A stretch of 64,000 bases of DNA. Origin: an uncultured delta proteobacterium. GTDB lineage: Bacteria > Desulfobacterota > Binatia > UBA9968. The translations under genes were made by a program, and so were the position numbers. This document shows positions 16,615 to 38,173 of the stretch, piece by piece. The stretch spans positions 96,001 through 160,000 of the forward strand of contig CAWDPO010000016.1 of NCBI GenBank assembly GCA_963804165.1, read 5' to 3'. The notes under the pieces were generated by a model. It saw only the letters and a list, made by a program, of their open reading frames with translations. It made no database searches and had not been told where the DNA came from. Numbering within the stretch: the first letter of the stretch is position 1; every line of letters starts with the position of its first letter.

Positions 16615-16688
16615 AGACATTTCGGCTATATTTCACTGTCGACTTTGACTGCTTCGTAAAAACAATGGATTACGGTACCTTGCCCGCT

Positions 16689-16704
16689 TGGCACACGCCT
16701 TGAT
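16689..16704 (+). promoter_or_regulatory. Candidate sigma54 -24/-12 promoter
   Basis: TGGCAC-ACGCC-TTGAT (GG-N10-GA variant), upstream of 16895 and the bEBP gene. Confidence 0.45.
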
Positions 16705-16894
16705 TACACCTTAAGTATTATCGAAACTTCGTCATGCCCCGAGAGGGAAGTGGGCATGAAGAAGTATTTTACATTCACTTGCTGGCGAACGTAGCCTGCA
16801 GACGTTGTTAGTTGATCGGTCGTGCCCCGAGGCCGCCTTGGGTTAGTCGGTGTTGCACTGGATAATGAATCCTCACACGCTCTAAGGGGGTGCC

Positions 16895-17125
16895 ATGAAG
16901 AACCTAGCTACAATATTGGGAGTTGCGCTTATTATTCTTGGTGTCGTGGCGCTCGCTTACCGGGGTATCACCTATACGGAGCGCGAGAAAATCGTCGACA
17001 TAGGTCCCCTCCAAGCCACTGCAGATCGAGAAAAAACCATTCCGTTGCCGCCCGTCTTGGGAGGATTATCTCTCGTCGGCGGCATCGCACTAGTGATTGT
17101 CGGAACGCTCAAGTCTCGCTCTTGA
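16895..17125 (+). CDS. Small two-TM membrane protein (DUF3185-like)
   Basis: TM-GITYTEREKIVDIGPLQATADREKTIPLPP-TM; RBS AAGGGG. Confidence 0.8.
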   Translation: MKNLATILGVALIILGVVALAYRGITYTEREKIVDIGPLQATADREKTIPLPPVLGGLSLVGGIALVIVGTLKSRS

Positions 17126-17337
17126 GGCGCGGAGACGTCATTGAACGGATCTTGAGAGGTCCTCGATAACATTCGCGATGTTTTATCGTCAACTATGAAA
17201 AGGATCCGCGATCGTTCCTTAGCTACGCCAAGTGCCCAATTGTCGAACTGCGCGCGGTTTGGTTCTTCCGTCGAAGCTGCTTCAGCGCTGCTTGGACGCG
17301 GAGAGCCAGAAAGCAAAAAAAATCACGGAGAAATCGT

Positions 17338-18750
17338 ATGACGGCACCGAAAATTCTTGTTGTAGACGACGATAAAAACCTCCTCGAACTCGCGAAAACC
17401 AAATTAAATGCGGCCAATTATGGCGTCACCGTGGTTCTCGGTCATGAAGAGGCCATCGATGCCGCGAATGCTCAGAGCTTCGATTTAGCTATTGTCGACT
17501 GGCGCCTTGCCGATCTGGACGGCGTGACGTTGATGGAAAAGTTACATGCGGTCAATCCTGGAATGCCGGTCATTATTCTCACCGGCCACGCAAGCGTCGA
17601 GGGCGCGGTCGAGGCGATGAAAAGAGGCGCATCCACCTATCTCACAAAGCCCTTCGATCCCCGCGAGCTGATTCTGCAAATCGACAGAGCCCTGGAAAGC
17701 TGCAAACTGGCCACCGAGAACCAAAGGCTCAGGGGCTTATTAAAGGAAAAGTACGATTTCGCCAACATCGTGGCCAAGAGCGACAAGATGCAGCGTGTGC
17801 TGGAGGCGGTTTCGCGCATCGCCAAAACAGATTCGACGGTCTATATCCACGGAGAAAGCGGCACCGGTAAAGAAATGATCGCCAAGGCGATTCACCTCGC
17901 GAGCCCGCGGAAAGATAGACCCTTCGTGGCGATCAATTGTGCAGCCATCCCGGAAACGTTGCTGGAAAGCGAACTTTTCGGCCATGAAAAGGGTGCTTTT
18001 ACCGGCGCTGTCCGGAGCACTAAAGGACTATTTACCCAAGCCAACGAAGGCACGCTCTTCTTAGATGAGATCGGTGATATGCCTCTCTCGATCCAAGTGA
18101 AGCTGCTTCGGGCCCTGGAGGAGCGGCAGTTTTATCCGGTGGGCGGCGAAAAGCCGGTGCAAGTTGATGTCAGAGTCGTCGTTGCAACTAAAAAAGATTT
18201 GGTGGACGAAGTCAAAAAAGGATTATTCCGTGAAGATCTATTTTACCGGATCCACGTCATCCCCATTATCCTTCCTGCGCTGAAGGATCGGATCGAGGAT
18301 GTTCCTTATTTGGTCGATCATCTCTTGAAGAAGATCTGTCAACAAATGAAAAGAGACGTCAAGGGAGTTACACCCAAGGCCATGGAAAAACTGATGCAAC
18401 ACGACTGGCCGGGCAACGTGAGAGAGCTCGAAAATACTCTCGAATACGCCGTAACCATGACCCAGCGCGACGTCGTGACGGACGATCTCGTTCTGCAAAC
18501 AAAACTTGCCGTCAGCGCCGTCGCGGCGGAAGATCCGCTTCAATCTCAGCTCTTGCCAACGGACGGATCGTTCAAGACGTTGAAAGAAGCCAGGTCAGAG
18601 TTCGAGAAAGCCTATCTGGTTCGTCTCCTGCATACGTGCAACGGCAAAGCTACGCGAGCGGCGGAAATCGCCGGAAAGTATCGCGCCGATTTTTACGACC
18701 TGTTAAAAAAGCACGACATTAAGTTGGCTGAGTTTAAGCGATTCAATTAA
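17338..18750 (+). CDS. Sigma54-dependent response regulator (NtrC family, GlrR-like)
   Basis: REC domain (VVDDD, DWRL, TGH, KPF), [31 protein letters not shown] and C-terminal RADFYDLLKKH. Confidence 0.93.
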   Translation: MTAPKILVVDDDKNLLELAKTKLNAANYGVTVVLGHEEAIDAANAQSFDLAIVDWRLADLDGVTLMEKLHAVNPGMPVIILTGHASVEGAVEAMKRGASTYLTKPFDPRELILQIDRALESCKLATENQRLRGLLKEKYDFANIVAKSDKMQRVLEAVSRIAKTDSTVYIHGESGTGKEMIAKAIHLASPRKDRPFVAINCAAIPETLLESELFGHEKGAFTGAVRSTKGLFTQANEGTLFLDEIGDMPLSIQVKLLRALEERQFYPVGGEKPVQVDVRVVVATKKDLVDEVKKGLFREDLFYRIHVIPIILPALKDRIEDVPYLVDHLLKKICQQMKRDVKGVTPKAMEKLMQHDWPGNVRELENTLEYAVTMTQRDVVTDDLVLQTKLAVSAVAAEDPLQSQLLPTDGSFKTLKEARSEFEKAYLVRLLHTCNGKATRAAEIAGKYRADFYDLLKKHDIKLAEFKRFN

Positions 18751-18874: not shown

Positions 18875-19526
18875 TTATGCCGTTGGCTTGGTGTCGAGAT
18901 GTCCCAGCCGCTTAAGAGCTTCACGTGCCGGCGCAAACGTAGGGCCTCTCAAGAGCCATATAGTAATAGTGCAACGCTTCGCGTAGATATCGCAGGTCTC
19001 GGAAAGCTCCGCCAGCTGATAATAAGGTTCCGGCCGGGTGAGGTCGCGCATCATGGCGATTTTTAGATAAACTCGCGCTTCGGTGAATGCTTTCCGCTCG
19101 CGCGCCAGCTCGGCCAAGTGGAGAAGGTCATCGACGGTTCCGCTCATGCCGATTTTCTGTCGCTCAAGAATCTCTTGGCAGAGAAGCTGAATAGCCTTGG
19201 GATCGAATGGCTTCTCGATGAAGTCTACGGCTCCGAGCTTTATGGCCTCCACAGCTCTTTTGACGGTCCCATAGGCGGTCAGCATGACCACCGGCATCCT
19301 GGGTTTAAGACCTCGTAGATAGCGAAGTAATTCCAAGCCATCCATCTTCGCCATCTGGATATCCGCGAAGACGATATCGTAGAGACCTTCTTTAACGCGG
19401 ATAACAGCATCATCGCCGTTACTGACCGTATCTACCTTGACCTTCTGCCTCGAGCACCATACCGAGATTATTACGAATGTTGCGCTCGTCATCGACAACC
19501 AGTATGTGCACCTGCGATTGAGTCAT
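18875..19526 (-). CDS. Response regulator: REC plus TPR-like C-terminus; frameshifted
   Basis: MTQSQVHILVVDDERNIR from 19526 joins by frameshift to FADIQMAKMDG...LTAYG...EKPF; TPR-like EARVYLKIAMMRDLTRPEPYYQLAEL. Confidence 0.8.
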
Positions 19527-19659
19527 CGGATTGTTCCTCTCTTCGTTGCCGGACGAGATCGCGATTATTTATAAAAACCGCATAAAAGTGCCATGCCACG
19601 CATGTCGATCTGTCGACTGCAGTTCACGAAATTGCTGCGATTGCGGCGCACTTCTGCTA

Positions 19660-19730
19660 TTGCTCTTGCAACCGGCCGCCGCTCGCCGCTTGCAACTTGC
19701 AAATGTCGACCACTTGTCTTGCAAATGCAA
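19660..19730. promoter_or_regulatory. Three phased TTGCA-N2/3-TGCAA palindromes (candidate upstream activating sequences)
   Basis: TTGCTCTTGCAA at 19660, TTGCAACTTGCAA at 19690 and TTGCAAATGCAA at 19719; spacing 30 and 29 bp. Confidence 0.6.
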
Positions 19731-19781
19731 CCAGCGCTTTGCCTTTCCCGTAAACGAGTGATTTCACGACTTAAGTGAGGC

Positions 19782-19797
19782 TGGCACCGTGCTTGCG
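19782..19797 (+). promoter_or_regulatory. Sigma54 -24/-12 promoter of the kdp operon
   Basis: TGGCAC-CGTGC-TTGCG, exact GG-N10-GC, ~40 bp before the first ATG (RBS AGGAG). Confidence 0.8.
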
Positions 19798-19834
19798 CTA
19801 TCAGCGAGCAAGACTCGACTTTAGGAGCGATCCA

Positions 19835-19919
19835 ATGGCCGACGTTATATTTATCCTGATCACCGTTGTTTTTTTTCATAATTGCTTGGCTCTATGTCCG
19901 GGTCTTGGATCGGCTCTAA
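19835..19919 (+). CDS. 27-aa hydrophobic microprotein upstream of kdpF; one extra T in a T8 run
   Basis: Removing one T gives MADVIFILITVVFFIIAWLYVRVLDRL*. RBS AGGAG; the stop abuts the kdpF RBS. Confidence 0.65.
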
Positions 19920-19929
19920 GGAGGGAATT

Positions 19930-20019
19930 ATGGGGCTGGAATATATTCTCGGCATTATCGTGTCGTTGGCCGTGATGTTGTATTTGCTCTACGCGCTGCT
20001 TTGCCCGGAGAAGTTTTAA
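19930..20019 (+). CDS. kdpF: K+-transporting ATPase subunit F
   Basis: MGLEYILGIIVSLAVMLYLLYALLCPEKF with the YLxYALLxPEKF signature; RBS GGAGG. Confidence 0.92.
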   Translation: MGLEYILGIIVSLAVMLYLLYALLCPEKF

Positions 20020-20092
20020 CCTTAGAGCATCGTAGTTCGCAGCGATGCGAGCCAACGGAAAAATATTGCATATTGAGGAAGTCGGAGATGTC

Positions 20093-21818
20093 ATGACAGT
20101 CAATGGATGGATGCAGATTTTGTTTTTCCATGGTGATTATTTTCGCCATAACGAAGCCGCTCGGCAGTTACATGTTTCGTGTCTTCGAGGGCGACCGGCA
20201 GCCGTTGCCGCGCCTGTTCGGACCCCTCGAGAGGTTGATTTACAAGCTATGCGGCGTGGATCCGAAGGAGCAGCAAGACTGGAAACAGTACGCGCTGGCG
20301 ATGCTGATCTTCAGCGCCATCACGTTGTTCGTCACCTACGCCATCGAACGATTGCAACATATGTTGCCGCTGAATCCCGCAGAACTTTGGCCCTGTCGCC
20401 GGCTGACTTGGCATTCAATACCGCTTCGAGCTTTACCACCAATACCAACTGGCAGGCCTACGGCGGCGAGTCGACGATGAGCTATCTGACACAGATGGCG
20501 GGGCTTGCTTGGCACAATTTCATCTCGGTCGCCGTTGGCATAGGCGTCATGATGGCGCTCACGCGCGGGATCACGTACCGCTCGCAAACCGGGCGCTCCG
20601 AAGACGCTCGGCAATTTTTGGGTCGATCTGGTTCGGTCAGTTCTCCGTCTTGATTCCCTTTTCCATCTCTATGGCGCTGGTGCTGGTCTCGCAGGGAGAT
20701 CATGCAAAACTTTTCATCCTATGTCGAGCTGACAACTTTGGAAGGAGTGAAGCAGACTCTGGCGATGGGGCCGATCGCTTCGCAGGACGCGATCAAACAA
20801 CTCGGCACCAACGGCGGTGGGTTTTTCAACGTCAACAGCTCTCATCCATTCGAGGGCGGTACCCCGCTGGCAAATTTGATCGAGATGGTGCTCATTCTCT
20901 CGATCCCGGCGGCGCAGACCTACATGTACGGGCTCATGGCGCGGGACACCAAGCAGGGCTGGACTCTCTTCGGAGCCATGGCGATTTTGTTTTTCATGGG
21001 CGTGACGACAGCTTATTACTTCGAGGCAAAGCCCAATCCGGTGATGCAAGGTCTGGCCGTGGATCAAACGGCCGGCAACATGGAGGGAAAGGAAGTTCGC
21101 TATCGGCGTGGCCAACTCCGTGACTTGGGCGACGGCAACCACCGACGCGTCAAACGGCTCGGTCAACTCCATGCACGATAGTTTCAATCCTATCGCTGGC
21201 CTGGTGCCCTTGTTGAACATTCAGCTCGGCGAATTAATTTTCGGCGGCGTCGGCGCCGGGCTTTACGCTATGCTGGTTTTTGTTCTTGTTTCGGTGTTTA
21301 TCGCCGGCTTGATGGTTGGGCGCACGCCTGAATATCTCGGCAAAAAAATCGAATCGCGCGAGGTCAAGCTCGCCATGCTTTACGTGCTGATCTTTCCGCT
21401 GATAATTCTTTATTTCTCCGGCTGGTCGGCAGTGGCGCCCTACGGCCTCTCTTCGCTCAACAACAATGGCCCACACGGATTGACCGAGATCTTGTACGCC
21501 TACAGTAGCGCTGCCGGTAACAACGGCTCGGCCTTTGCCGGACTCAACGCCAACACTCCCTGGTACAACGTGACACAGGGTCTCTCGATGCTCATGGGCC
21601 GCTATTTAATGATTGTTCCAGCTCTGGCCATTGCCGGCTGTATGGTTGGTAAAAAGGCTGTGCCCGAAAGCTTGGGCACTTTCCCGACAAACGGGACGCT
21701 TTTTGTGGTGCTGTTGGTGGGTGTGGTTCTTATTGTTGGGGCGTTAACTTTCTTCCCCGCACTAGCGCTCGGGCCTATTGTCGAACACTTTGTCGCCCTG
21801 GCAGGAAAGGTTTATTAA
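20093..21818 (+). CDS. kdpA: K+-transporting ATPase subunit A; multiple frameshifts
   Basis: [61 protein letters not shown] and NNGSAF, spread over successive frames. Confidence 0.93.
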
Positions 21819-21819
21819 C

Positions 21820-23877
21820 ATGGCAGACAGTCGCTTAATGGAACGATCTTTGTTCGATCCTGAAATCATGCGGCCGGCGATTTGGGAGAGCTTTCGCAAG
21901 CTCGTTCCGCAGCACGTGATCAAAAATCCCGTCATGTTCGTAGTCGAGATCGGTAGCGTGATTACGACGCTGATCTGGTTGCGCGACATGATTGCGCCCG
22001 TGCCAGGGTCTCAGCCGCTGTGGTGTACTTTCAATGTCAGTTTCTGGCTCTGGTTTACCGTGGTTTTTGCGAATTTTTCCGAGGCAGTCGCGGAAGGACG
22101 TGGTAAGGCCCAGGCGGCAACCTTGCGCAAGATGCGGCAGGAAACCACCGCTCGGCGCTTGGTCAACGGCAACCGTGAAGAAAAAGTGCCCGCGTCGGCC
22201 CTCCGCAAAGGCGATACCGTTGTCGTCGAAGCAGGGGAAGTGATTCCCGGCGACGGTGACGTGATTCAAGGCATCGCTTCGGTCGATGAGTCCGCGATCA
22301 CCGGCGAGTCGGCCCCCGTCATTCGTGAAAGCGGTGGCGATCGTTCGGCGGTAACCGGTGGCACGAAAGTGTTGTCTGACCGCATCGTCGTGCGCATCAC
22401 AGCGAGCCCTGGCGAGTCCTTTCTCGATCGCATGATCATTCTGGTCGAGGGAGCGGAACGGCAGAAGACGCCTAACGAGATCGCGCTGAATATTCTACTC
22501 GCTGGTCTTACTCTGGTTTTTCTCTTTGCGTGCGTCACTCTCGTGCCCATGGCGCTCTACTCCGGCATGACCAATGTTTCCGTAACCGTGATTGTCGCTT
22601 TGCTGGTGTGTTTGATTCCGACGACCATCGGCGGCTTGCTCTCCGCCATCGGCATTGCCGGTATCGATCGCTTGCTGCGCAAGAACGTGCTCGCGATGAG
22701 CGGGCGCGCGGTCGAAGCCGCCGGCGACGTCGATACTTTGCTTTTGGACAAGACCGGCACGATCACGCTCGGCAATCGCATGGCTACCGAATTCATTACG
22801 GTCGACGGTGTTAGTGCCGAGACTCTGGCGGACGCCGCGCAGCTTTCCAGCCTCGCCGACGAGACGCCGGAAGGCCGATCCATCGTCGTTCTCGCCAAGG
22901 AAAAATATGGACTGCGCGGGCGCGAAGTGACCGAGATCGGCGCGAAATTTATTCCGTTTAGCGCTGAAACCCGCATGAGCGGCTGTGATCTCGACGGGCG
23001 CAAGATCCGCAAAGGCGCGGTCGATGCGATCGTCGCCTACGTGCAGGAACTCGGCGGGACGGTGGGCTCGCAGGTCGAGGGCATTACCCACGGAATCTCC
23101 GATACCGGCGGCACGCCGCTGGTAGTTGCCGAGGGCAACAAGGTCCTCGGTGTGATTCATCTCAAAGATGTCGTCAAAGGCGGCATCAGCGAGCGCTTTC
23201 AGCGCTTCCGCGCCATGGGTATCCGCACGGTGATGATTACCGGCGACAATCCGCGCACCGCCGCGGCGATCGCGCGCGAAGCCGGCGTGGACGATTTCCT
23301 TGCTCAAGCAACGCCGGAAGCAAAAATGCGGCTCATCAAAGAAGAGCAGGCCAAAGGAAAACTGGTCGCGATGACCGGCGACGGCACCAACGATGCGCCG
23401 GCATTGGCGCAGGCTGATGTTGGCGTGGCGATGAACACCGGGACCCAGGCGGCCAAAGAAGCCGGCAACATGGTCGATCTCGACTCCAATCCGACCAAGC
23501 TGTTGGAAGTCGTCGAGATCGGTAAGCAGATGCTCATGACGCGCGGCGTACTCACGACGTTTTCTATCGCCAACGACGTCGCTAAGTATTTCGCGATAAT
23601 TCCGGCTATGTTCATGGGTGTTTATCCGGAGATCACGCCGCTCAACATCATGCATCTGGCATCGCCGCAGAGCGCAATTCTCTCAGCGGTTATATTTAAC
23701 GCTCTTATTATCATTTTACTTATTCCCCTCGCGCTACGGGGTGTCCAGTACCGCCCCATCGGCGCTGGACCGTTGCTGGCACGCTCTTTGTTGATTTATG
23801 GCGTCGGCGGAGTCATCGCGCCTTTTATTGGTATCAAACTGATCGATTTGGTTTTGGAAGCCGTCGGCCTTGTGTAG
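21820..23877 (+). CDS. kdpB: K+-transporting ATPase subunit B
   Basis: [46 protein letters not shown] and DVAKYFAI. Confidence 0.98.
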
Positions 23878-23886
23878 GAGAAACCT

Positions 23887-24579
23887 ATGAAAACCTTCAT
23901 TATTGCTTTGCGCGCTACGATCGTCACTCTGGTTGTAACCGGCCTTCTCTATCCATTCGTGATGACCGGAGTCGCGCAAGTGCTTTTCCCCTGGCGCGCC
24001 AACGGGAGTTTGGTAACAGACGAGAAAGGCCAAGTCGTAGGCTCGGAGTTGATCGCTCAGGGATTCTCGAATCCCGCTTACTTTCAGCCCCGGCCGTCGG
24101 CGGCAGGCGAGAAAGGCTATGACGCAACTTCCTCTTCGGGCTCCAACCTGGGTCCGACATCGAAGAAATTGCAGGACCGTATCAACGACGATATCAAACG
24201 ACTGAAGGAAGAAAATCCGGAAGCGTCCGGCCCCATCCCAGCTGAACTTGTTACTGCGTCTGCCAGTGGATTGGACCCACATCTCTCCCCTGAAGCAATG
24301 ATATGGCAGGCGCCGCGAGTGGCGAAAACACGCGGCGTGACGGCGGAACGCGTAAAAGCCGTCGTCGATTCAAATGTCGAAGGCAGAACCTTCGGCATCC
24401 TGGGTGAACCGAGAGTTAACGTGCTGATGGTCAATCTCGCGCTTGACCGCCAGTTCGGCAAAGCGACTCCGCTCCCGCCGGCTCCCGAAAAGAAGGAAAC
24501 GAAGGAAGAGGCCAAAAAGGAAGAGGCGACTCCGGCCCAACCGACCGTTCAGGCCGCGCCGCCGCCTTCAGCAAAATAG
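23887..24579 (+). CDS. kdpC: K+-transporting ATPase subunit C with Pro/Glu/Lys-rich tail
   Basis: ANGSL, YFQPRPSA, SSGSNLGP, VTASASGLDPH and GEPRVNV. Confidence 0.96.
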   Translation: MKTFIIALRATIVTLVVTGLLYPFVMTGVAQVLFPWRANGSLVTDEKGQVVGSELIAQGFSNPAYFQPRPSAAGEKGYDATSSSGSNLGPTSKKLQDRINDDIKRLKEENPEASGPIPAELVTASASGLDPHLSPEAMIWQAPRVAKTRGVTAERVKAVVDSNVEGRTFGILGEPRVNVLMVNLALDRQFGKATPLPPAPEKKETKEEAKKEEATPAQPTVQAAPPPSAK

Positions 24580-24631
24580 CAGTTGATGGATGGCGATTCC
24601 CGAACACAAGGAAGGCAAGAAGGCTCGACCG

Positions 24632-25079
24632 GTGAAGAAAATTGAAGCGGTCATCCATCCTTTCAAGCTGGATGAAATCAAAGAAAATTCTGACGAGGTC
24701 GAAAATCCCGCGCATCACCGTCTTCGAGGTCAAAGGTGCAGGCACGCAACAGGGAAAGTCGAAAGTCTATCGCGGGGCTCCGTACATCGAAGATTCCGCC
24801 GAAATCAAAATCGAGATGGTGGTGGATGATGATGAAGCCGAGCACATCGCTGAAATGATTTTCGATACGCTTCGCACCGGAGACTTGTGTGACGGCGAGG
24901 TGACCATTGTACCAGTGGAACATTGTGTCCGCTTGCGGGCCGGTCAACGAGGGCATGGCCTGCCCAGCTGGGCGCGTGATCCTGTTTCGTCATGTCTAAT
25001 TCGGGATGGCGCCCGTCTGAAGTCCTACTTCAGGTCTCTAAGAAGAAAATTTCACGAAGCAGCTCGAGAGCATACTTAG
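24632..25079 (+). CDS. Divergent PII (GlnB/GlnK-like) protein with C-terminal extension; one frameshift at ~24685
   Basis: VKKIEAVIHPFKLDEIKE joins TVFEVKGAGTQQG..YRGAPY..KIEMVVDD..RTGDLCDGEV..VRLRAGQRG. Confidence 0.8.
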
Positions 25080-25142
25080 TTCCTTTCAAGTCGGTGTCGG
25101 CAGCAGCAGGAATTTTCGTTTGCTAATTGGCAAGGAGAGGTC

Positions 25143-26360
25143 ATGAAACAAGCATTCCTAACCGCAGTCCTTATTCTTGGGCTCTTTTTATTTGTCGGAC
25201 GGTCGGCTCACGCCGCCGAGGAAGAGAAGCCGCTTGCGCCGGGCTGGCTGAGTCTGGATTGTTGTATTGGTCCGCTGGACAACGCTATAGGCTCGGGAAA
25301 AGACTCGCTTCAGAAAGCCCTGGGGCTCAACTTCGGCGGTTATTTGGATACCAGCTACACCTGGAGTTCGAATCATCCCCGTAGTCCGAACGACATTAGC
25401 CAACGGTATTTTGATAAAGACCACAACGAAATCGTCTTTAACAACTTTCATTTATTTGTCGAAAAGCCGGAAAAGGACTGGGGCGTCGGCTTCCGCATCT
25501 CGGGCGACTTCGGGCGATCGGGCGAGCTACTGCGAGAGGCGACGCTTTGGGGCAAAGCTTTGCATAGAGAACCTTCGGCAGAATTGCGCGAAGCCTATCT
25601 GACTACGACCATTCCTGTGGGCGAAGGTATCGGTTTGAAAGGCGGTCTGTTTGTCACGACGTTGGGAACCGAGATCCTGCCGAATCCGGGCGCGTATAAC
25701 GACAATATTTCACGCTCGTATCTGTTCAACTGGGGAGTCCCATTGCGCCATTTGGGCGTCTTGGCCAACTATCAAGTCGTCAAGATGCTCAATATCAATC
25801 TCGGCGTGGTGACGGGTTGGGATGATCCTCATGATAACAATCATCAGCCCTCGTTCATGGGCGGCTTCACCCTAACCCCGACCGATACTGTAACGTTGGC
25901 GACCAACATGATTTACGGCGCGGAACAACGCAATGGTGCCCCAAAGCGTTTTACGATCTCCAATGTTCTAACGCTCAAACCGATTGATCCTCTGGCGTTG
26001 TATATCGAATACACCTACGGCCACGAAGACAGGGTTACGCCGAGCGGGCGTGATGGGGTCTGGCAGGGCCTCGCCGGTATCGCGTCTTACAACTGGACGG
26101 AGCGCTTCAATACGGCTCTGAGAGGCGAGGTCTTTAATGATCAGGACGGCGTCCGGCTTGGTGGTGAACCTTTCGGCACCCACAAGAATGCGACACTGGG
26201 AGAAGTCACGCTGACGGGTTCATACAAATTTACCAAGATGCTGCTGGGTCGCGCTGAAGTACGCCAGGATTGGGCCGATCGGAGCATGTTCAAACGCGGC
26301 AGCTCCAATGCCGACTCCAACCAGACGACCTTGGCGATGCAGTTGATCTATACTTTCTAG
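25143..26360 (+). CDS. Outer membrane beta-barrel / putative porin (DUF1597/BBP2-like)
   Basis: Signal peptide AHA; GGYLDTSY, ELREAYL, GLFVTTLGTE and NDNISRSYLF; C-terminal YTF. Confidence 0.85.
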   Translation: MKQAFLTAVLILGLFLFVGRSAHAAEEEKPLAPGWLSLDCCIGPLDNAIGSGKDSLQKALGLNFGGYLDTSYTWSSNHPRSPNDISQRYFDKDHNEIVFNNFHLFVEKPEKDWGVGFRISGDFGRSGELLREATLWGKALHREPSAELREAYLTTTIPVGEGIGLKGGLFVTTLGTEILPNPGAYNDNISRSYLFNWGVPLRHLGVLANYQVVKMLNINLGVVTGWDDPHDNNHQPSFMGGFTLTPTDTVTLATNMIYGAEQRNGAPKRFTISNVLTLKPIDPLALYIEYTYGHEDRVTPSGRDGVWQGLAGIASYNWTERFNTALRGEVFNDQDGVRLGGEPFGTHKNATLGEVTLTGSYKFTKMLLGRAEVRQDWADRSMFKRGSSNADSNQTTLAMQLIYTF

Positions 26361-26375
26361 CTAAGGGATTGATGA

Positions 26376-26462
26376 GGTGCCCTGGCCGATGGGAAGTTCT
26401 CCGGCCGACGTGGCGAAGATGTGATTCGCACTCGGACCGGCGAGAAAAATGCGGAAGCGCTC
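26376..26462 (+). pseudogene. C-terminal relic of a second PII gene
   Basis: Translates as GALADGKFSGRRGEDVIRTRTGEKNAEAL, matching the PII C-terminus (GxIGDGKIF...EDVIRIRTGE..EAL). No start codon or N-terminal half. Confidence 0.6.
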
Positions 26463-26712
26463 TGGGACTATGACCTGAGCGCACCAGTTTACCATCGATA
26501 GGGATGCGGACGTGTGCTCATAGCCGAAGTCATTTCACAACGTAAACCTAAGCGATGCGTTGCTAGACAAAGAGGGGCTTGGGCTCCGTAGGCACGCCTA
26601 GCGCGCCGCATCGCTGGCAAATTTCAGCGCGGCGATCTATCCTTTTCGCTAACGTCGCGGTTAGCGCTTTTTTTGGACCTGCCGCTCTATTTTTCGGGGT
26701 CTCCAAGCATCC

Positions 26713-26943
26713 ATGGATCGACTCACGGTTTTCGGCTTGTTCGCGGTGACGTCAATGCTGATATGCTATGCTTTCGAGCACCATAGCCATTGGCTTGTCT
26801 TCGGGTTCGCCGTGTCTTGCGCCCTGGCATCCATCTATGGATTTCTCCAGGGCGCATGGCCCTTTGGCGTCGTAGAGGGGATCTGGTGTATGGTCGCGCT
26901 GCGCCGCTGGCGCAAACGACAACCCGGGGTGTCCGTGTCGTAA
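26713..26943 (+). CDS. Small conserved-looking membrane protein (76 aa)
   Basis: Hydrophobic segments and YGFLQGAWPFGVVEGIW; directly upstream of the KdpD-domain gene. Confidence 0.75.
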   Translation: MDRLTVFGLFAVTSMLICYAFEHHSHWLVFGFAVSCALASIYGFLQGAWPFGVVEGIWCMVALRRWRKRQPGVSVS

Positions 26944-26966
26944 ACAATGTAAATCCAATCAAAGTT

Positions 26967-28151
26967 ATGCCGCCAGAAGGACAAGAAACATCGACAGGTT
27001 CCGCGCGCAAGCGCCCGGAAGATTTCCTCGAGCTGGTAGAGCGTGCCAAGCGTGGCCGCCTCAAGGTCTACATCGGCGCAGCAGCCGGCGTCGGCAAGAC
27101 CTTTCAGATGCTCGAGGAAGCTCACCTGCTCAAAAAGCGCGGCGTCGACGTGGTGTTGGCGTTCATCGAGCCGCACGACCGGCTCGATACCGCGGCGCTG
27201 ATCGAAGGGCTCGAGGTGGTGCCGCGCCGGCGCGTCGATTATCGCGGTGTGGTTGTCGAGGAGATGGATCTCGACGCGGTTCTCAAGCGCCATCCCCAGG
27301 TTGCCATCGTCGATGAGCTGGCGCATACCAACGCGCCGTTTTGCAAAAACAAGAAGCGCTATCAGGACGTTTTGGAACTGCTCGAAGCCGGCATCAATGT
27401 GATTTGCGCTTTCAACGTGCAGCATCTCGAAAGCCTAAACGACATGGTCAAACAGGCGACCGGCGTGGTCGTTCGCGAGACCGTACCGGATTCGATCCTG
27501 AAGCGTGCCGATCAGGTTGTCGACATCGATCTGGCGGTCGAAGATCTCATCGATCGCCTTAAAGCGGGCAAGATTTATGCGCCCGATAAGGTTGGGTGGG
27601 CGCTTGAGAATTTTTTCCTCCCAGAAAAACTTGCGGTGTTGCGTGAAATTGCCCTGCGGGAGGTGGCGGAAAGCGTCGACCGCACGGTGGCGGCCAAGGC
27701 CGGCAACGCTGACGCCGGTCGCAGGTCGGCGGCGAGCGAACGCGTAATGGTTTGTCTACCCACCCGGCCGCCGCCCCACGGTGCCATGCTACTTAGACAG
27801 GGCTCGCGCTTGGCGGGCCGTTTAAACACCGACTGGTTTGTTGTGCATGTCGAGACCAAAAGCGAAGCGGGTCACCGCATCGACGCGACGCTGCAGCGGC
27901 ACCTTCTGGACGATGAACAAAGAGCGCGAGATTTGGGGGCAGAAGTCGTCCGCCTGCGCTCGGAAAAACCAGTCGACGCGCTGCTCGAATTTGGCCGTCA
28001 TCATGGCGTTCGCCATATCGTTGTTGGGCGATCGCACAAACCCTGGTGGCGTCGTATGTTAGGTCAATCGCCGGTTTTCAAACTGGTCACCGAAGCGGCT
28101 GGATTCGATCTCCACATCGTGTCGTTGGAAGATCGGGGGGCAAGTGAATGA
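26967..28151 (+). CDS. kdpD: Stand-alone KdpD N-terminal domain plus USP domain (no TM, GAF or His-kinase part)
   Basis: RGRLKVYIGAAAGVGKT (Walker A), IVDELAHTN, KRYQDV, NVQHLESLND, RETVPD and LREIALR; USP region ERVMVC...HIVVGRS. Confidence 0.9.
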   Translation: MPPEGQETSTGSARKRPEDFLELVERAKRGRLKVYIGAAAGVGKTFQMLEEAHLLKKRGVDVVLAFIEPHDRLDTAALIEGLEVVPRRRVDYRGVVVEEMDLDAVLKRHPQVAIVDELAHTNAPFCKNKKRYQDVLELLEAGINVICAFNVQHLESLNDMVKQATGVVVRETVPDSILKRADQVVDIDLAVEDLIDRLKAGKIYAPDKVGWALENFFLPEKLAVLREIALREVAESVDRTVAAKAGNADAGRRSAASERVMVCLPTRPPPHGAMLLRQGSRLAGRLNTDWFVVHVETKSEAGHRIDATLQRHLLDDEQRARDLGAEVVRLRSEKPVDALLEFGRHHGVRHIVVGRSHKPWWRRMLGQSPVFKLVTEAAGFDLHIVSLEDRGASE

Positions 28152-29986
28152 ATCTCTATAGAAAATTATTGCTGGCCCAAGCGCCGATCGCCATCGCCCT
28201 AGCGATCGTCGGCATCTTTTCGGCAATTGTGGTGTCCTACCTCGGCTCTCATTCGCAAACCATTTTGAAAGACAATTATCGGAGCGTGCTGGCAGCGCAG
28301 CGGATGAAAGAAACGAGCGAGCGCATGGACAGCGGTGCGCTGTTTATTGTTGCGGGCGAGCGTCAAAAAGGGCTTGAGCAGGCGGAAAAAAATCGCCCGA
28401 TCTTCGAAGCCGAGCTGAAAGTGCAGGAGGGAGATGTCGCGGAGTCGGGCGAGAAGGAGTTTACCGAGGGATTGCGCGCGGCGTGGACCGATTATCAGGC
28501 TAAATTCGCCAAGCTTGAAAAAAGCACCAGCGCGGAAGAAGCGAAGCAACTCTATTTTGCCGAGCTGGAATCGGCCTTTAATAAAGTGAAATCGGCCGCC
28601 GACGAAATCCTGGCGATCAATCAAGACACCATGGTGCGTAAAAGCGACGACGTGCGGCGCACGGCAGAGCGCATGAATGCGATCACCATGACGGTGGCAC
28701 TGACGGCACTAGCGCTAGGTCTCTTCGTCTCGACGTTTCTTACCCGGCGGCTGCTCCAGCCGGTCTCGGCGCTCAGCGAGGCGACGCGCAAAATCGGCGA
28801 GGGCAATTTCGACACGCGCGCCCACGTGCGCGGCAACGACGAGCTGGCGCAGTTGGCACGGGACTTTAATGCGATGGCCGCGCGCTTGGCGGAATACCGC
28901 AAAAGCTCGCTCGGCGACTTGCTCCAGGCGCATTTGAGCATGCAGGCGGCGATCGACAGCCTGCCCGACCCGGTCGCGATTTTTAATATTGACGGCAATC
29001 TCCAGAACGTCAACCATGCGGCGGAAACGCTCATCGGACTGAGAACCGACGGTGGCGTGAAAGAGCCGTTCAAAACTGTCGATGCGGCGACGCGAGCCAT
29101 TCTCGAGCGCATGCGTAGCCACGTGCTCTCGGGCAAAGGCGCGTTTAACCCGAGAGGGTTCGAAGACGCGGTCCAGCTCCCGACTCTGTTGGGCGACCGG
29201 TATTTCCTGCCGCGTGCCACGCCGGTCTATGAAGCGCGCGGCGTGATCATCGGCGCCACTGTGATCTTGCAGGACGTCACCCGGTTGCGCCGCTTCGAAG
29301 AATTGAAAAACGACGTCGTGGCAACCGTCGCGCACGAGTTCCGCACTCCGCTCACGTCTTTGCGCATGGCGGTGCACCTGTGCGCCGAACAGGTCGCCGG
29401 TCCGCTCACGGAAAAGCAAGCCGAACTGATGCACGCGGCGCGCGAAGATTGCGACCGGTTGCAGGCCATGGTCGACGATCTTTTGGATTTGTCGCGAATC
29501 GAATCCGGTCGGGTGGAGATCTATCCGCTACCGACGCCAATCGGAGTGCTCGCCGACACCGTCGTCGAACAATTCAAAACTGAAGCCGAGGCCAAAGGCG
29601 TGCGCCTGAGCACGGAGATCGCAATTCCGGAAGTCAAAGTACTGGCGGATCACGAGCGCGTGGGCCATGTATTTGCCAATCTTGTCGGCAACGCGTTACG
29701 CCACACCCAGCGGGATGGCTCGGTAATCCTGGGTGCGAGCGTCAGTAACGGCGCGGTGCGTTTCACGGTGACGGACACGGGCAAAGGAATTCCAAGGGAA
29801 TACCAGGAGCGAATTTTTGAAAAGTTTTTCCAAGTCCCTGAGAGTGGACCGAAGGGAACCGGTCTGGGTCTTTATATCGCCAAGGAGATCGTGCGCGGTC
29901 ATGGTGGCGACATCGGTGTCGAAAGCGAAGTAGGAAAAGGGAGCATGTTTTGGTTCACGCTGCCGACCAAAGCAAAGACTGTCTAG
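28148..29986 (+). CDS. Sensor histidine kinase (periplasmic four-helix bundle, HAMP, PAS, HisKA, HATPase; KinB-like architecture)
   Basis: DNYRSV, DELAQLARDFN, VAHEFRTPLT, NLVGNA, DTGKGI and GTGLGL; ATGA overlap with the kdpD-domain gene. Confidence 0.93.
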   Translation: MNLYRKLLLAQAPIAIALAIVGIFSAIVVSYLGSHSQTILKDNYRSVLAAQRMKETSERMDSGALFIVAGERQKGLEQAEKNRPIFEAELKVQEGDVAESGEKEFTEGLRAAWTDYQAKFAKLEKSTSAEEAKQLYFAELESAFNKVKSAADEILAINQDTMVRKSDDVRRTAERMNAITMTVALTALALGLFVSTFLTRRLLQPVSALSEATRKIGEGNFDTRAHVRGNDELAQLARDFNAMAARLAEYRKSSLGDLLQAHLSMQAAIDSLPDPVAIFNIDGNLQNVNHAAETLIGLRTDGGVKEPFKTVDAATRAILERMRSHVLSGKGAFNPRGFEDAVQLPTLLGDRYFLPRATPVYEARGVIIGATVILQDVTRLRRFEELKNDVVATVAHEFRTPLTSLRMAVHLCAEQVAGPLTEKQAELMHAAREDCDRLQAMVDDLLDLSRIESGRVEIYPLPTPIGVLADTVVEQFKTEAEAKGVRLSTEIAIPEVKVLADHERVGHVFANLVGNALRHTQRDGSVILGASVSNGAVRFTVTDTGKGIPREYQERIFEKFFQVPESGPKGTGLGLYIAKEIVRGHGGDIGVESEVGKGSMFWFTLPTKAKTV

Positions 29987-30055
29987 AACTGGGCCACAAG
30001 ACCGCGGCGATCACAAACAACAAATAAAAGAAATTTCGCGAGACAAAGATAGAAA

Positions 30056-30083
30056 CTCTCGTTACCGCCAGAGTAACCGAGAG
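30056..30083. terminator. Hairpin between convergent genes
   Basis: CTCTCGTTAC...GTAACCGAGAG stem; no clear U-tract. Confidence 0.3.
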
Positions 30084-30129
30084 CTTAAATAGAGTTGTGT
30101 ACGTAGGTGAGACAGATTGGAATGTCCCA

Positions 30130-31968
30130 TTAGTTGCAGATGATCAGATGGCAGTCCCTGGGAAGCCGCTTCATAAGCCCCTTCAGGACGTGGCCGCGGA
30201 GCATGTGATCGAAGGCCGAGCGCTTCGAGGAGCCGATGAGTACGGCATCGACATCGAGTACCTCGGCGGCGTTGGCAATAGCCTCCGCCGCGTTGTGCGA
30301 GACTGTCCAGATCGGAATCATCTCGATCGGTTTTCCACGGACCGCTTGCAGTGCTGCCTTGAGGGTCTCGACTCCTTGTTCATTCGGCCGATGAGGGGTC
30401 GTTCCGGCGAACAGTCCGGGCCATTCCTCGACGTAAATACAGTACAGGGCCGACTCGCCTTTGCCTTTTGCCCGCATGATCCCTTCCTGGATCAGGTGCG
30501 GATTCTCATCACGGAGGGCCAGCAGAGTGGAAGAGGAATAGAACGGCTTGACCTCCACCGCTTCTGCAAGCGTCATGAGCCCCTTCAGCTCATCTTCGAC
30601 AAGATCTTCCGACGCGCGATACGCCCGTGTTTGCAGCCTCTCTATGAACGGAATCTGGGTGAGCCCCTCGATGAACCATCCTCGGCGCACGCCGACCGCC
30701 ACGAGCATCCCGATAAGTGTGACAGTTCCTCCGAAAAGCGTGGCGAGCTCCTTTTCCACGAGGTTGATCCCCCAGGCAACCATCAGCATCAAAGTTGTCA
30801 GCACGCCGACCCAGAAACCAAAATCGCGACGTCCCAACCTCCAACGAATCGCATCCAAGCTCGATGATGAGAAGACAAACGCGCCCAACAGCCCAAAGGC
30901 GTACATATCGCCAAGAAGAATCATGTGGCCGCGGGTGAGCAGAATCAGCAGCACCGGAACCAAGGTTGCGATCAGAACTGCGATATGGGGTGTGTTAAAT
31001 GCGCGGTTACGCAATTCCAGAATTTTCGGTAGAAAGCCTTGGCTCGTGAGCGCCAGAAAAACATGATACGAACCGATGATTGCCGTATTCGATGCGAACA
31101 AGAGAAGGCTCGAAGCGGTTGCCACCACCGCCAGCTTGACGCCGAACCCGCCGACGATAAGGCCCAATTCGGAGATGAAGCGCTCACTTTGCGTTGCCTT
31201 GATCTGATCCGACAAAAGTCCCACCGATAATGCGGTCAGGACCGGTGACGTAATGATCATCGTGATTATGACAGCGGCCATGGCGCGGCGTGTCGTTCGG
31301 CGCAGCGGGTAGCGCATGGCCGGGCTCAGTTGGCTGATACTCTCCAGTCCTGAAAACGCGAGCCAGGCAGCGGAGAATCCAACGAGGAGTTCGTAGGAGG
31401 AAACTTCTTCACGTACACTGAGATGATTCAGGACCGTTTGCCATTGTTCGGCATTCATGATCACGACAGCGATGCCGATCACGACGAGATTGATGAAAAA
31501 CGCTGACAATGCCATCACAAGCGACACTGTAGCGCTTTCCCTAATTCCGATGATGTTGAGCGCGGCAAGGGTTCCCACGCCTACGCAGGCTAGAAGAACG
31601 ATATGAGGGTCGAGAACGGGAAAGGCGCTGCTCAGATATTGAAATCCGGAAACCGAGGAGATCGCCGTGGTAAGGAAATAATCGACGGTAATCAGCATGC
31701 CGCCCAAACAGCCCCACATGGGGCCGAAAGCTTTGGTTGTGATAGTGACGACACCGCCGCCTTCGGGGTTGCGCCACGAGATTTCGATATACTTCAGCGC
31801 GAGAAGGATGAAACCGCCCGTGGTGAGCAGGACAAAAAACGGAGCCGCGTCTTTGACGTGGCCATACAAGATACCCGGCACATAGTAAACGGACGTGCCG
31901 ATATCGCAGAAAACGACGGCCCACGCGAGAAACCAAGTAAGTTGTCTTGTATCGCGAGTCGGACGCAT
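30130..31968 (-). CDS. APC-superfamily permease (KUP/KimA-like) fused to a C-terminal USP domain
   Basis: DIGTSVYY resembles KUP GDIGTSPLY; PEGGG, DYFLT and GLESIS; ~12 TM segments; USP tail VDAVLIGS...LRGHV. Confidence 0.8.
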   Translation of the reverse strand: MRPTRDTRQLTWFLAWAVVFCDIGTSVYYVPGILYGHVKDAAPFFVLLTTGGFILLALKYIEISWRNPEGGGVVTITTKAFGPMWGCLGGMLITVDYFLTTAISSVSGFQYLSSAFPVLDPHIVLLACVGVGTLAALNIIGIRESATVSLVMALSAFFINLVVIGIAVVIMNAEQWQTVLNHLSVREEVSSYELLVGFSAAWLAFSGLESISQLSPAMRYPLRRTTRRAMAAVIITMIITSPVLTALSVGLLSDQIKATQSERFISELGLIVGGFGVKLAVVATASSLLLFASNTAIIGSYHVFLALTSQGFLPKILELRNRAFNTPHIAVLIATLVPVLLILLTRGHMILLGDMYAFGLLGAFVFSSSSLDAIRWRLGRRDFGFWVGVLTTLMLMVAWGINLVEKELATLFGGTVTLIGMLVAVGVRRGWFIEGLTQIPFIERLQTRAYRASEDLVEDELKGLMTLAEAVEVKPFYSSSTLLALRDENPHLIQEGIMRAKGKGESALYCIYVEEWPGLFAGTTPHRPNEQGVETLKAALQAVRGKPIEMIPIWTVSHNAAEAIANAAEVLDVDAVLIGSSKRSAFDHMLRGHVLKGLMKRLPRDCHLIICN

Positions 31969-32117
31969 AGGTTTCTTCTTACGAAAGTTCAAAGCTACCA
32001 CAAATTAACTGGGTTCAATAATGAAACAACCGAGGATTCGGTTCCAGTTTTAACACTTTTATTTTTCAGGGTAATTTTTTAATTCCGGGGCGACTACAGA
32101 ACTGTTAGATTGAAGTA

Positions 32118-32573
32118 ATGCGACAAGTCCATTCCGTACCCGAACCGGTTGCCGCACATACGGTTCGGCGCATTGCGCATCCAATCAATTTTTCTAATGT
32201 GTCTGAAAGCGGGCTTAGCTGGGCGATTCACTTGGCAGAGGAACATCAGGCCGAATTCCTACTGTTGCACGTTGTCCCACCACCGACGCCCATTTTCGAG
32301 CTTGAATCGCCGATGAAATCCGAAGCAGAACATGCATTATCCGTTCTGCTGGCAAAACTCGAGGCAACAGGCCTCAAGGCACGAGGCTTCCTGCTAACCG
32401 GGAAAAGTTCTACGGAGAGTCAAATTGTTCGCGCCGCCAGACTGGAACGCGTTGATCTTATCATTATGGGAACCCGCGGCCGTCCCGGCATCTCCAGGCT
32501 ACTCGTAGGGAGCTTGGCATCCAGAGTAATCGATCGCGCCCACTGCCCAGTACTAGTTGTCCCGAGCCGATGA
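32118..32573 (+). CDS. Universal stress protein
   Basis: IAHPINFS, LLHV, DLIIMGTRG, LVGSLASRV and CPVLVVP. Confidence 0.92.
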   Translation: MRQVHSVPEPVAAHTVRRIAHPINFSNVSESGLSWAIHLAEEHQAEFLLLHVVPPPTPIFELESPMKSEAEHALSVLLAKLEATGLKARGFLLTGKSSTESQIVRAARLERVDLIIMGTRGRPGISRLLVGSLASRVIDRAHCPVLVVPSR

Positions 32574-32708
32574 CCGAGAGAGCAAGGGGCGACACCATGC
32601 AGGCAATGTAAAGTGAGGGCAGCACGTTTCGGGAAGCAGCGCGTCGAGGGCCAAGCGGTCGATTTTTAGTAATCACGAATCCTTCCGTTGACTTGTCGTT
32701 TCCAAGGT

Positions 32709-34100
32709 CTAGCCCTCGTATTTTTTTCGCTTGCGCCAAAGCGTCGATGCGTCGATCCCAAGCACGGCAGCGGCTTCGTCCAAAGTCGCTGTGCGCGCGA
32801 GCACGCGGGTGATATGCTCGCGCTCGATGGCGTCCAAGGAAAAATCACCGCCCATTTGCGCCGCGTCCGCGCTGCGATGGCGCGCGGAAATATGCGGCGG
32901 GAACGCTTCTGGTTCGATGATTTGAGCCGGCCAAAGTATCACTGCTCTTTCGATGGTGTTTCTGAGCTCGCGCACGTTACCGGGCCACGAGTAAGTGGTC
33001 AAAACTTCGGCGGCGGCGTTCGATAGCTCGGGCGTTTGGCGCCGCGCCGATTTTGCGAAAAAGATCAAAAACCGGCGCGCCAAGCGCAGAATATCCTCGG
33101 GCCGCTCGCGCAGGGGCGGCAACTCCAAATCGATCACATTCAAACGATAGAGCAGATCTTCGCGGAACAAGCCCTGGCGCACGTGCTCGGCTAAATCGCG
33201 ATTGGTGGCCGCCACGGTTCGCACGTCGGCTCGTCGCGTTTTGTTCTCGCCGAGCCGTTCGAATTCCTTTTCCTCGATGAAGCGGAGCAGCTTGGCTTGC
33301 AACGATGGCGAGATGTCGCCGATCTCATCGAGAAAAAGCGTGCCGCCCTCGGCCGCTTCGACGCGGCCCGCTTGATCGCGCACGGCGCCGGTAAAAGCTC
33401 CTTTGGCGTGGCCGAACAGCTCGCTGGTGAGCAATTCCTCGGATAGAGTCGGGCAATTGACGACGACGAAGGGATGACGGCTGCGCGGGCTCAATGAATG
33501 AATCCAGCGCGCCAGTACGCTCTTGCCCGTGCCGCTTTCACCGCGCAGCAGGACCGGCGCGTCCGAGCTCGCTGCTTTTCGCGCAACTTCAAAAACCGCG
33601 CGCAGCTTCGGTGAATCGGATTCCAAATCGCTGTCCGGCGCCGCTTCACGCAGCCGGCCCTCCAAATCGATGACCTGTCGTTTGAGGTCGCGTTGCTTGA
33701 TGCATTGATCGACAACATGGCGAATCTGCGCCGGCGTAAACGGCTTGGCCAGATAATCGGCCGCGCCGCGTTTGATCGCGTCCACCGCGCTGTCGATCGT
33801 GGCGTACGCCGTGATCACCACCACCAACAGATTAGGACAATCGGCGATCAGTTTGGGGATGAGATCGAGACCGCTGGTGTCGCCGAGACGGACGTCGAGA
33901 AACGCCAAATCGTAGGCCTGTTGGGTGAGAGCATCGAGCGCGCTTTCTCCAGATGACACCGCGGCCACGTGACAGCCGGCTTGCTCGAGACAAAGCGACA
34001 ACGTGGCGCGAATGTTTTTTTCATCGTCGATGACAAGCACCGGAGTCTTGAATCCGCAGTCGGTTTTGGGGAGACCACGATGACCGCCTTGTTGGAGCAC
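32709..34100 (-). CDS. Sigma54-dependent response regulator (AlgB-like)
   Basis: [48 protein letters not shown] and [18 protein letters not shown]. Confidence 0.93.
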
Positions 34101-38146: not shown

Positions 38147-38173
38147 AAGCCTCTTATTTTGTTTCCCCCTTGA

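Follow-up and report, generated by a model that had tools for sequence, protein, structure and literature searches.

The kdp locus analysed here occupies positions 18875-34100 of a 64-kb stretch of contig CAWDPO010000016.1 from an uncultured soil-dwelling delta proteobacterium (we use "the window" for the whole 64-kb stretch), and its closest described counterpart is the potassium uptake operon DVU3339.1-DVU3334 of Desulfovibrio vulgaris Hildenborough. That operon comprises kdpFABC, a K+-sensor/Usp protein without a kinase, a PAS ('sensory box') kinase and a GAFTGA-containing sigma-54 regulator. Rajeev et al. 2011 (PMC3333781) describe the D. vulgaris kinase as 'split into two ORFs' (open reading frames), with the K+ sensor and UspA in DVU3336 and the kinase domains in DVU3335, and report that DVU3334, a sigma-54 regulator, binds the kdp operon to which it belongs. 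DVU3334 is listed as a GAFTGA regulator of potassium uptake by Kazakov et al. 2015 (PMC4641369). In Escherichia coli the same pump is served by KdpD, a single membrane-bound chain, and the OmpR-type regulator KdpE. Silberberg et al. 2024 (PMC11018627) report that short KdpD/Usp and split KdpD forms are common, and that the N-terminal domain of KdpD is an atypical serine kinase that acts on S162 of KdpB by means of a Walker A (G-x5-GKT) and a Walker B (D-E) motif. According to the same source, where a species has a separate two-component system, the chain with the serine kinase is still encoded downstream of the pump.

Our locus has the same core as DVU3339.1-DVU3334: kdpFABC, a soluble chain made of the KdpD N-terminal and Usp domains (KdpD-N/USP), a separate PAS-containing histidine kinase and an NtrC-family activator. 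We consider it probable that this is a Candidatus Binatia-type kdp system built on the D. vulgaris core design and working through the steps proposed below. As the core has already been described in D. vulgaris, the locus is a further example and not a new kind of system. It differs from DVU3339.1-DVU3334 in that the regulator gene lies on the opposite strand and is parted from the kinase gene by genes for a permease-USP fusion and a USP, in that PII, porin, PII relic and small membrane protein genes lie between kdpC and KdpD-N, in the addition of a REC-TPR receiver protein, and in phylum (Binatia). With E. coli it shares the pump, the Walker A/B motifs and Usp domain of KdpD-N and the TGES serine of KdpB. 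Unlike E. coli, the window has no single-chain membrane KdpD or OmpR-type KdpE, its kdp promoter is of the sigma-54 type, and the kinase receives its input through a four-helix bundle, HAMP and PAS where KdpD has four transmembrane (TM) helices and a GAF domain. The split KdpD proteins of Deinococcus, Anabaena and Alicyclobacillus described in PMC11018627 resemble our locus in having a KdpD/Usp-only chain downstream of the pump and a separate two-component system; the commonest split partner given there is a TM/GAF/DHpCA kinase with KdpE, whereas the window has a HAMP/PAS kinase with a sigma-54 activator.

A previous reading of this stretch, made from its sequence alone (the sequence-only reading), had listed the genes of the cluster, cited Desulfovibrio as a precedent for sigma-54-type control of kdp, and proposed that the whole forms a new, expanded and integrated system. 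Every listed element was found between 18875 and 34100 using ORFs, Pfam and NCBIfam, and the precedent is borne out by DVU3339.1-DVU3334 as described in PMC3333781 and PMC4641369. The proposal of a new integrated system is not supported, as the core is that of DVU3339.1-DVU3334 and the relatives do not have the extra modules together as one set. The core features are as follows.

18875-19526, minus strand: REC-TPR, a single-domain response regulator with a receiver (REC) domain and a helical, TPR-like C-terminus (Pfam Response_reg, E=1.1e-24)
19690-19730, plus strand: inverted repeats TTGCAacTTGCAA (19690-19702) and TTGCAaaTGCAA (19719-19730), candidate upstream activating sites (alignment A1)
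19782-19796, plus strand: sigma-54 -24/-12 core TGGCACcgtgcTTGC, TGGCAC-N5-TTGC (pattern scan)
19835-19919, plus strand: transmembrane micro-ORF of 27 codons directly upstream of kdpF, frame-broken
19930-20019, plus strand: kdpF (TIGR02115, 31.5 bits, above the cut-off of 26.85)
20093-21818, plus strand: kdpA (four Pfam KdpA pieces; frames 2>0>2>1>2>0)
21778-23877, plus strand: kdpB, intact (TIGR01497, 1067 bits)
23887-24579, plus strand: kdpC (Pfam KdpC, E=3.1e-72; NF001454, 239 bits, above cut-off)
26967-28151, plus strand: soluble KdpD-N/USP, 394 aa (Pfam KdpD, E=2.4e-90, and Usp)
28148-29986, plus strand: membrane histidine kinase with TM, four-helix-bundle, TM, HAMP, PAS, HisKA and HATPase parts (Pfam)
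32709-34100, minus strand: NtrC-family activator, REC-AAA+-HTH_8 (Pfam Response_reg, Sigma54_activat and HTH_8; GAFTGA in the translation)

Window features were annotated from the ORF listing and from Pfam and NCBIfam profiles. Relatives were collected in one scan of genome contigs with KdpD-N/USP as the query, which returned 36 loci (L001-L036), and the window proteins were placed on all of them by tblastn. Fifteen loci (L001-L014 and L016) are 84-95% identical to the query and were treated as Binatia; their records are mostly labelled Candidatus Binatia, uncultured delta proteobacterium or Deltaproteobacteria, with L009 labelled Chloroflexota, and L003, L004 and L013 belong to one metagenome-assembled genome (MAG). 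L015 and L017 are from Myxococcota (63-64% identity) and the others are from Acidobacteriota (44-52%) and Methanothrix-type archaea (43-45%). The distribution comparison used one genome per species.

The kdp promoter and its candidate regulators

The sequence TGGCACcgtgcTTGC is the sole exact match to TGGCAC-N5-TTGC in the 64 kb and places the GG-N10-GC arrangement of a -24/-12 element upstream of kdpF. When up to one mismatch to the core was allowed, the window gave 10 matches against 5.4 expected. Sigma-54 patterns demanding A or T after TTGC had no match, and the site was recovered with the relaxed core. The pattern TGGCA[CT]-N5-[CT]TGC is found at a matching position, 250-354 nt before kdpA, in eight of the nine Binatia loci with upstream DNA, with a spacer that varies in sequence, and in one of 11 non-Binatia loci (L022 only). 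Alignment A1 contains two further elements as conserved columns, both of them inverted repeats of the form TTGCA-N3-TGCAA. With no more than one mismatch, this repeat is present in all nine Binatia upstream regions and in none of the 11 others, and in five loci the two copies are exactly 31 bp apart. The only copies in the window are those at 19690-19702 and 19719-19730, that is, solely upstream of kdp.

Together, the repeats and the core have the layout expected of a sigma-54 promoter with upstream activator sites. For comparison, Tables S5/S7 of PMC3333781 give a DVU3334 site, CGTTACATTTTGTAACG, at -149 and list the operon. The D. vulgaris site is a palindrome upstream of kdpF with half-sites TTACA..TGTAA, and the predicted sites in the window (TTGCA..TGCAA) are similar in form.

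The activator at 32709-34100 is the likely regulator of this promoter. Its orthologue (73-96% identity) is found on the opposite strand past the kinase gene in all 12 assessable Binatia loci, and orthologues were also found in L015 and L017 by tblastn. In L011 the activator lies 5 kb off, behind TonB-receptor and CopC/CopD genes. Among the best 25 of its 116 NCBIfam matches, AtoC, NtrC and PEP-CTERM regulators come first; all 25 score below their cut-offs, and no model for AlgB, to which the sequence-only reading likened the protein, is among them. As for the alternative regulator, Pfam found no REC-Trans_reg_C (OmpR/KdpE-type) protein across the 64-kb window. The view taken in the sequence-only reading, that kdp is wired to sigma-54 and lacks a kdpE, is thus upheld: the promoter and repeats are conserved, each of the 12 Binatia loci that could be assessed has the activator next to the kinase, and no Trans_reg_C match occurs in the window. 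We regard the wiring of this kdp operon to sigma-54 and an NtrC-type regulator, rather than to an OmpR-type KdpE, as a well-supported prediction.

In L015, a Polyangia MAG, genes for the activator, KdpD-N/USP and the kinase are adjacent and co-directional (7893-12252), with no kdpABC in the 20 kb of sequence covered. This suggests that the three regulatory genes need not accompany those of the pump.

The same kinase may have a second receiver. Of the 13 Binatia loci that could be assessed, 10 encode REC-TPR, as a rule in the interval from kinase to activator; it lies upstream of kdpF in the window and L001 only. Its accompanying the kinase in most loci agrees with the earlier suggestion of a second receiver. 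The name given to it holds in part, as the REC domain is clear and TPR is weakly supported: TPR_1/TPR_2 gave sub-threshold matches in four of four orthologues (best 1.5e-5).

A second NtrC-type activator gene (REC-AAA+ with GAFTGA) is located at 17338-18750, and its best NCBIfam match is GlrR, below cut-off. It is preceded by about 1 kb without a Pfam domain (region 16336-18750), and a one-mismatch sigma-54-like site is present at 16689-16703.

The split KdpD and the micro-ORF

The KdpD-N/USP chain contains the Pfam KdpD and Usp domains only, with no TM or kinase domains, and no ORF in the window encodes a full-length single-chain KdpD by Pfam (KdpD-N, Usp, four TM, GAF and DHp/CA). Of the NCBIfam models it fits NF038185, 'KdpD-like non-kinase potassium sensor', best, with 379 bits against a cut-off of 550. 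The kdpABC genes are upstream of KdpD-N in all 10 assessable Binatia loci and the kinase gene is directly downstream in all 14, mostly with the same 4-nt overlap between kinase start and KdpD-N/USP stop as in the window. In an alignment of 29 KdpD-N/USP sequences neither Walker A (G37..G43-K44-T45) nor Walker B (D116-E117) varies, and the KdpB translation contains the TGES motif with the regulatory serine. Because of these motifs and the roles given to them in PMC11018627, KdpD-N/USP is more likely a post-translational off-switch of the pump than a mere sensor half. The sequence-only reading had described sensing as split over a soluble KdpD/USP and a separate kinase; the split into two chains stands, but the likely part of the soluble one shifts from sensor to serine kinase on KdpB. 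A complex prediction for kinase residues 200-612 (15-row alignment) and KdpD-N/USP (29-row alignment) returned a score of 0.01, which is evidence neither way. Control of the Usp domains by c-di-AMP was also considered; Pfam found no diadenylate cyclase in the window.

We propose the following scheme. The sigma-54 promoter at 19782-19796 would drive the micro-ORF and kdpFABC, with transcription probably running on into the PII and porin genes. When K+ is scarce, the kinase at 28148-29986, with its periplasmic four-helix bundle, HAMP and PAS domains, would phosphorylate the regulator encoded at 32709-34100. The regulator would bind the pair of TTGCA-N3-TGCAA repeats that lie some 60-90 bp ahead of the -24 element, and its AAA+ domain would open the sigma-54 complex. 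KdpD-N/USP would be translationally coupled to the kinase and would most likely phosphorylate the TGES serine of KdpB so that the pump stops when K+ returns, and it may also modulate the kinase. REC-TPR would act as a second receiver, either a phosphate sink or an adaptor. The PII, BBP2 porin, 76-aa protein, permease-USP and USP genes would be clade-variable additions related to K+ and NH4+, for which control by the same promoter and regulator is unsupported.

Other arrangements of the split chain were seen among the relatives. Six acidobacterial loci (L018 at 333-4680, L019, L022, L023, L026 and L036) have a kinase and a receiver regulator upstream of kdp and a short KdpD-N/USP downstream, and three of them (L018, L023 and L026) also have a BBP2-type porin upstream of kdp. 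By Pfam, L018 encodes a DUF4118-HisKA-HATPase kinase and an OmpR-type regulator, which amounts to a KdpE-type version of the split system. In four Methanothrix-type loci (L029, L031, L032 and L033), proteins of 656-661 aa that start with the KdpD-N/USP module are encoded directly after kdpABC.

All 18 bacterial loci with upstream DNA (nine Binatia, L017 and eight Acidobacteriota) have an intact hydrophobic micro-ORF of 27-28 codons that ends 9-10 nt before kdpF (e.g., MADVIFILITALFFIISWLYVRGCDRL in L002). It is absent in both of the archaeal loci (2/2). The micro-ORF has no NCBIfam or Pfam match and is below the size of standard gene callers. A literature search on a small ORF upstream of kdpF found nothing among the papers listed, which is no proof of absence. 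Conservation at the protein level over three phyla argues that the micro-ORF is translated.

The loci with the micro-ORF thus include those of Kofleriaceae and Acidobacteriota (among L017-L036; e.g., L018 4694-4780 and L019 5127-5213), which have KdpE-type regulation. Its presence alongside regulation that is not of the sigma-54 type suggests that it goes with the pump rather than with the regulators.

Clade-variable neighbours

Between kdpC and the activator, the core genes are interspersed with the following features.

24632-25079, plus strand: PII-A, PII family (Pfam P-II, E=1.8e-14 for the window fragment)
25143-26360, plus strand: BBP2 (OmpL-like) outer-membrane porin (Pfam BBP2, E=2e-66)
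26376-26462, plus strand: PII relic, the last 29 codons of a canonical glnK-like PII (tblastn with L001 PII-B)
26647-26675, plus strand: terminator-like hairpin followed by T7, in the gap that parts the porin and relic from the small membrane protein gene (consensus scan)
26713-26943, plus strand: 76-aa membrane protein (ORF; no family match)
30130-32001, minus strand: KimA-like APC permease fused to a C-terminal USP (Pfam and solved-structure match; Usp at residues 503-619)
32118-32573, plus strand: stand-alone USP (Pfam Usp, E=1.9e-26)

PII-A appears to be a fairly ordinary PII protein. The intact L001 orthologue matches Pfam P-II (E=7.1e-20) and solved PII proteins (E=3.7e-27) and retains YRG in the T-loop, while scores against the NCBIfam PII equivalogs are below their cut-offs. 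The T-loop has substitutions, and the window and L001 share an extension of about 37 aa at the C-terminus. Orthologues of PII-A were found in L001, L004 and L013 by tblastn, and an intact canonical PII (PII-B) in L001, L003, L004 and L013. The relic matches the C-terminus of L001 PII-B at 13 of 29 residues (tblastn, E=0.001 window-wide), with the next chance matches at E of at least 1. In L001, the interval between kdpC and KdpD-N/USP (7247-9735) contains PII-A, a canonical glnK-like PII and a frame-broken amtB, which places an ammonium uptake unit inside the kdp cluster. PII-A shares its T-loop tyrosine with GlnK and GlnB-type PII proteins, and the canonical glnK-amtB of L001 lies at the equivalent place. 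It differs from GlnK-AmtB pairs in standing directly behind kdpC and not beside amtB, and the canonical PII of the window is reduced to the 29-codon relic. A literature search on PII with kdpFABC had nothing relevant by title among the papers listed, which does not prove absence.

The porin covers positions 2-339 of the 339 in the BBP2 profile PF07642 (E=2e-66). BBP2-type porins adjoin kdp in Binatia L004, L013 and L016 and in acidobacterial L018, L023, L026 and L027. The 76-aa membrane protein, with no Pfam or NCBIfam match, has orthologues directly upstream of KdpD-N in L004, L008, L011, L013 and L016.

The best solved match of the permease is KimA (6s3k, E=6.5e-22, compared with 3e-6 for AdiC). 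KimA residues D36, Y43, D117, T121, S125, E233 and Y377 are conserved and T230 is replaced by S. Among these, D36, Y43, T121, Y377 and E233 align with D33, Y40, T111, Y367 and E220 of the window protein, and PMC6994465 gives them roles in K+ binding and gating (D36, Y43, T121 and Y377) and proton coupling (E233). The KimA-like label of the sequence-only reading is therefore retained, since 6s3k is the best solved match and the K+, gating and proton residues are conserved. The permease shares the LeuT-fold permease domain and key residues with Bacillus subtilis KimA, a KUP family K+/H+ symporter. Overall sequence similarity is low (E=6.5e-22) and the cytoplasmic C-terminal domain of KimA has no counterpart, as the alignment to 6s3k ends at query residue 400 and the window protein has Usp at 503-619. 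Also unlike KimA, no ydaO-type riboswitch was found: a search of the entire window with Rfam at the gathering threshold returned no match to ydaO/c-di-AMP or any other riboswitch.

The hairpin at 26647-26675 may divide the region into a kdpFABC-PII-porin unit and a small membrane protein-KdpD-N-kinase unit; the total number of hairpin-like terminator sites across the region is not above that in shuffled sequences.

It is possible, though on balance we think it rather unlikely, that the micro-ORF product is an extra small subunit or assembly factor of KdpFABC and that the PII genes tie the pump or the kinases to nitrogen and energy status, both being so far undescribed parts of Kdp biology. The PII link, if true, would parallel the known one of PtsN to KdpD and might curb NH4+ leakage through Kdp.

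Elsewhere in the window, a cytochrome c oxidase cluster (3936-10777: COX2, COX1, CtaA, UbiA-type CtaB, two COX3-like genes, COX4_pro and DUF420) has a CopD-like gene upstream of it. Selenocysteine genes lie at 43850-48582, comprising an AIR-synthase-related (selD-like) gene, selB split in two frames and selA; no tRNA-Sec, and no other tRNA gene, was found in the window by ARAGORN.

Alternative explanations and significance

Under one alternative, which follows the sequence-only reading, all thirteen modules would form one jointly regulated potassium-homeostasis system. It would combine two routes of K+ uptake with an outer-membrane channel and PII as a metabolite sensor, and its split sensor would feed two receivers. 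The genes stand side by side and have a common theme, and several of them recur: KimA-family permeases are also found near kdp in L002 and L016 (E=6.8e-56 and 3.9e-60 to 6s3k), BBP2 porins adjoin kdp in both Binatia and Acidobacteria, PII genes are within the cluster in L001, L004 and L013, and REC-TPR is in 10 of 13 loci. However, the modules do not travel together. Only 10 Binatia loci have a visible interval from kdpC to KdpD-N, and of these two contain PII-A and one the porin. The L002 and L016 permeases are 23-25% identical to that of the window and are at different positions, and none of the 15 Binatia loci has a permease-USP orthologue, a USP between kinase and activator, or the gene order of the window (tblastn). 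Co-occurrence of all modules, which had been put forward as a check on the idea, is thus not what the relatives have. The activator gene is followed by GH57/DUF3536 in L001, L008 and L009, as in the window, so the permease-USP and USP genes look inserted into an older kinase-activator junction. Finally, the activator repeat and the exact sigma-54 core are solely upstream of kdp; window searches, and a reading of the intergenic sequence 32001-32118, found no additional copies by the permease-USP, USP, porin or KdpD-N genes. We consider a single jointly regulated system unlikely, and judging from these comparisons the extra modules are clade-variable neighbours with a K+/NH4+ theme and no sign of shared control.

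A different regulator could serve the promoter, either the 17338-18750 activator or a nitrogen regulator, in which case the operon would answer mainly to nitrogen or energy status and not to K+. The REC-AAA+ GAFTGA activator at 17338-18750 is about 1 kb from the promoter, and PII and amtB are within the cluster in L001; glnK-amtB units are classic sigma-54/NtrC targets. Against this, none of the 36 loci has a full-length counterpart of the 17338-18750 activator (tblastn), whereas the 32709-34100 activator is always present and accompanies KdpD-N and the kinase also where PII is lacking. Both regulators score below the cut-off of the NtrC model, and the D. vulgaris precedent ties this architecture to low K+ in PMC3333781 and PMC4641369. 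We regard this explanation as very improbable.

The frame breaks, which the sequence-only reading did not mention, raise the question of whether the locus is decaying, with kdpA, the micro-ORF, PII and REC-TPR as pseudogenes and no pump made. The breaks do stand in the given sequence, and the PII relic records real gene loss at the locus. The kdpA gene changes frame five times, with the KdpA profile pieces 4-89, 92-154, 189-319 and 317-548 in different frames (Pfam); its indels relative to L007 and L013 are ambiguous in exact placement at 86-88% DNA identity, and the order of frames was taken from tblastn. REC-TPR is broken at about 19439, where residues 1-29 of the L001 orthologue match one frame and residues 31-214 another (tblastn). 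Several breaks that can be placed fall in base runs: the micro-ORF has an extra T in a T8 run (19869-19876), a position that is a gap in all nine other rows of A1, PII-A is broken in an A4 run at about 24684, and kdpA has a further break in T5CC at about 20128. Unrelated genes throughout the window, housekeeping ones among them, are broken in the same manner (fumC, MFS, GH57/DUF3536, NTP_transferase, hydantoinase B, ABC_sub_bind and the glycogen genes for glycogen synthase, branching enzyme and MalQ), at the following positions.

13342-14575, 15423-16333, 34388-43713, 53101-54887 and 58892-64000: fragmented unrelated genes (Pfam)

Similar gene splits are present in the related assemblies L012, L013 and L014. 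The kdpA pieces have no in-frame stops and are 72-97% identical to relatives at the protein level at about 86-88% DNA identity; five real frameshifts, each arisen independently, would have left more decay. Because unrelated genes are split too and the kdpA pieces are so similar to their relatives, the frame breaks are most likely assembly errors, with indels probably affecting the assembly as a whole, and we find a decaying locus distinctly unlikely. With frame errors in so many genes, the annotation of the window should not be taken at face value.

Several points weigh against our preferred reading, a Binatia-type kdp system under the 32709-34100 activator. If the frame breaks were real, kdpA would be dead. 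The absence of a full-length kdpD and of kdpE holds for the 64-kb window only, and the 17338-18750 activator, which adjoins the island, may still be a candidate for the kdp promoter. DVU3334 and the 32709-34100 activator were matched on architecture and type of binding site. One of the nine Binatia loci, L011, has the repeats and no recognisable -24/-12 element, and the second repeat of the window (19719-19730) has a 2-nt spacer where the consensus has 3 nt. The hairpin at 26647-26675 suggests that KdpD-N/USP and the kinase are possibly transcribed apart from kdpFABC. Activation, phosphotransfer and the response to K+ are all predictions from sequence.

Sigma-54/NtrC-type control of Kdp has until now been demonstrated experimentally in D. 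vulgaris only. The loci described here add Candidatus Binatia and some Myxococcota to its predicted range, again in combination with a split KdpD. They offer a naturally occurring physical separation of the KdpD serine-kinase module from the transcriptional kinase, which would be useful for telling the two activities apart. The conserved promoter and activator site are directly testable, and the micro-ORF ahead of kdpF is a widely conserved element that lacks annotation.

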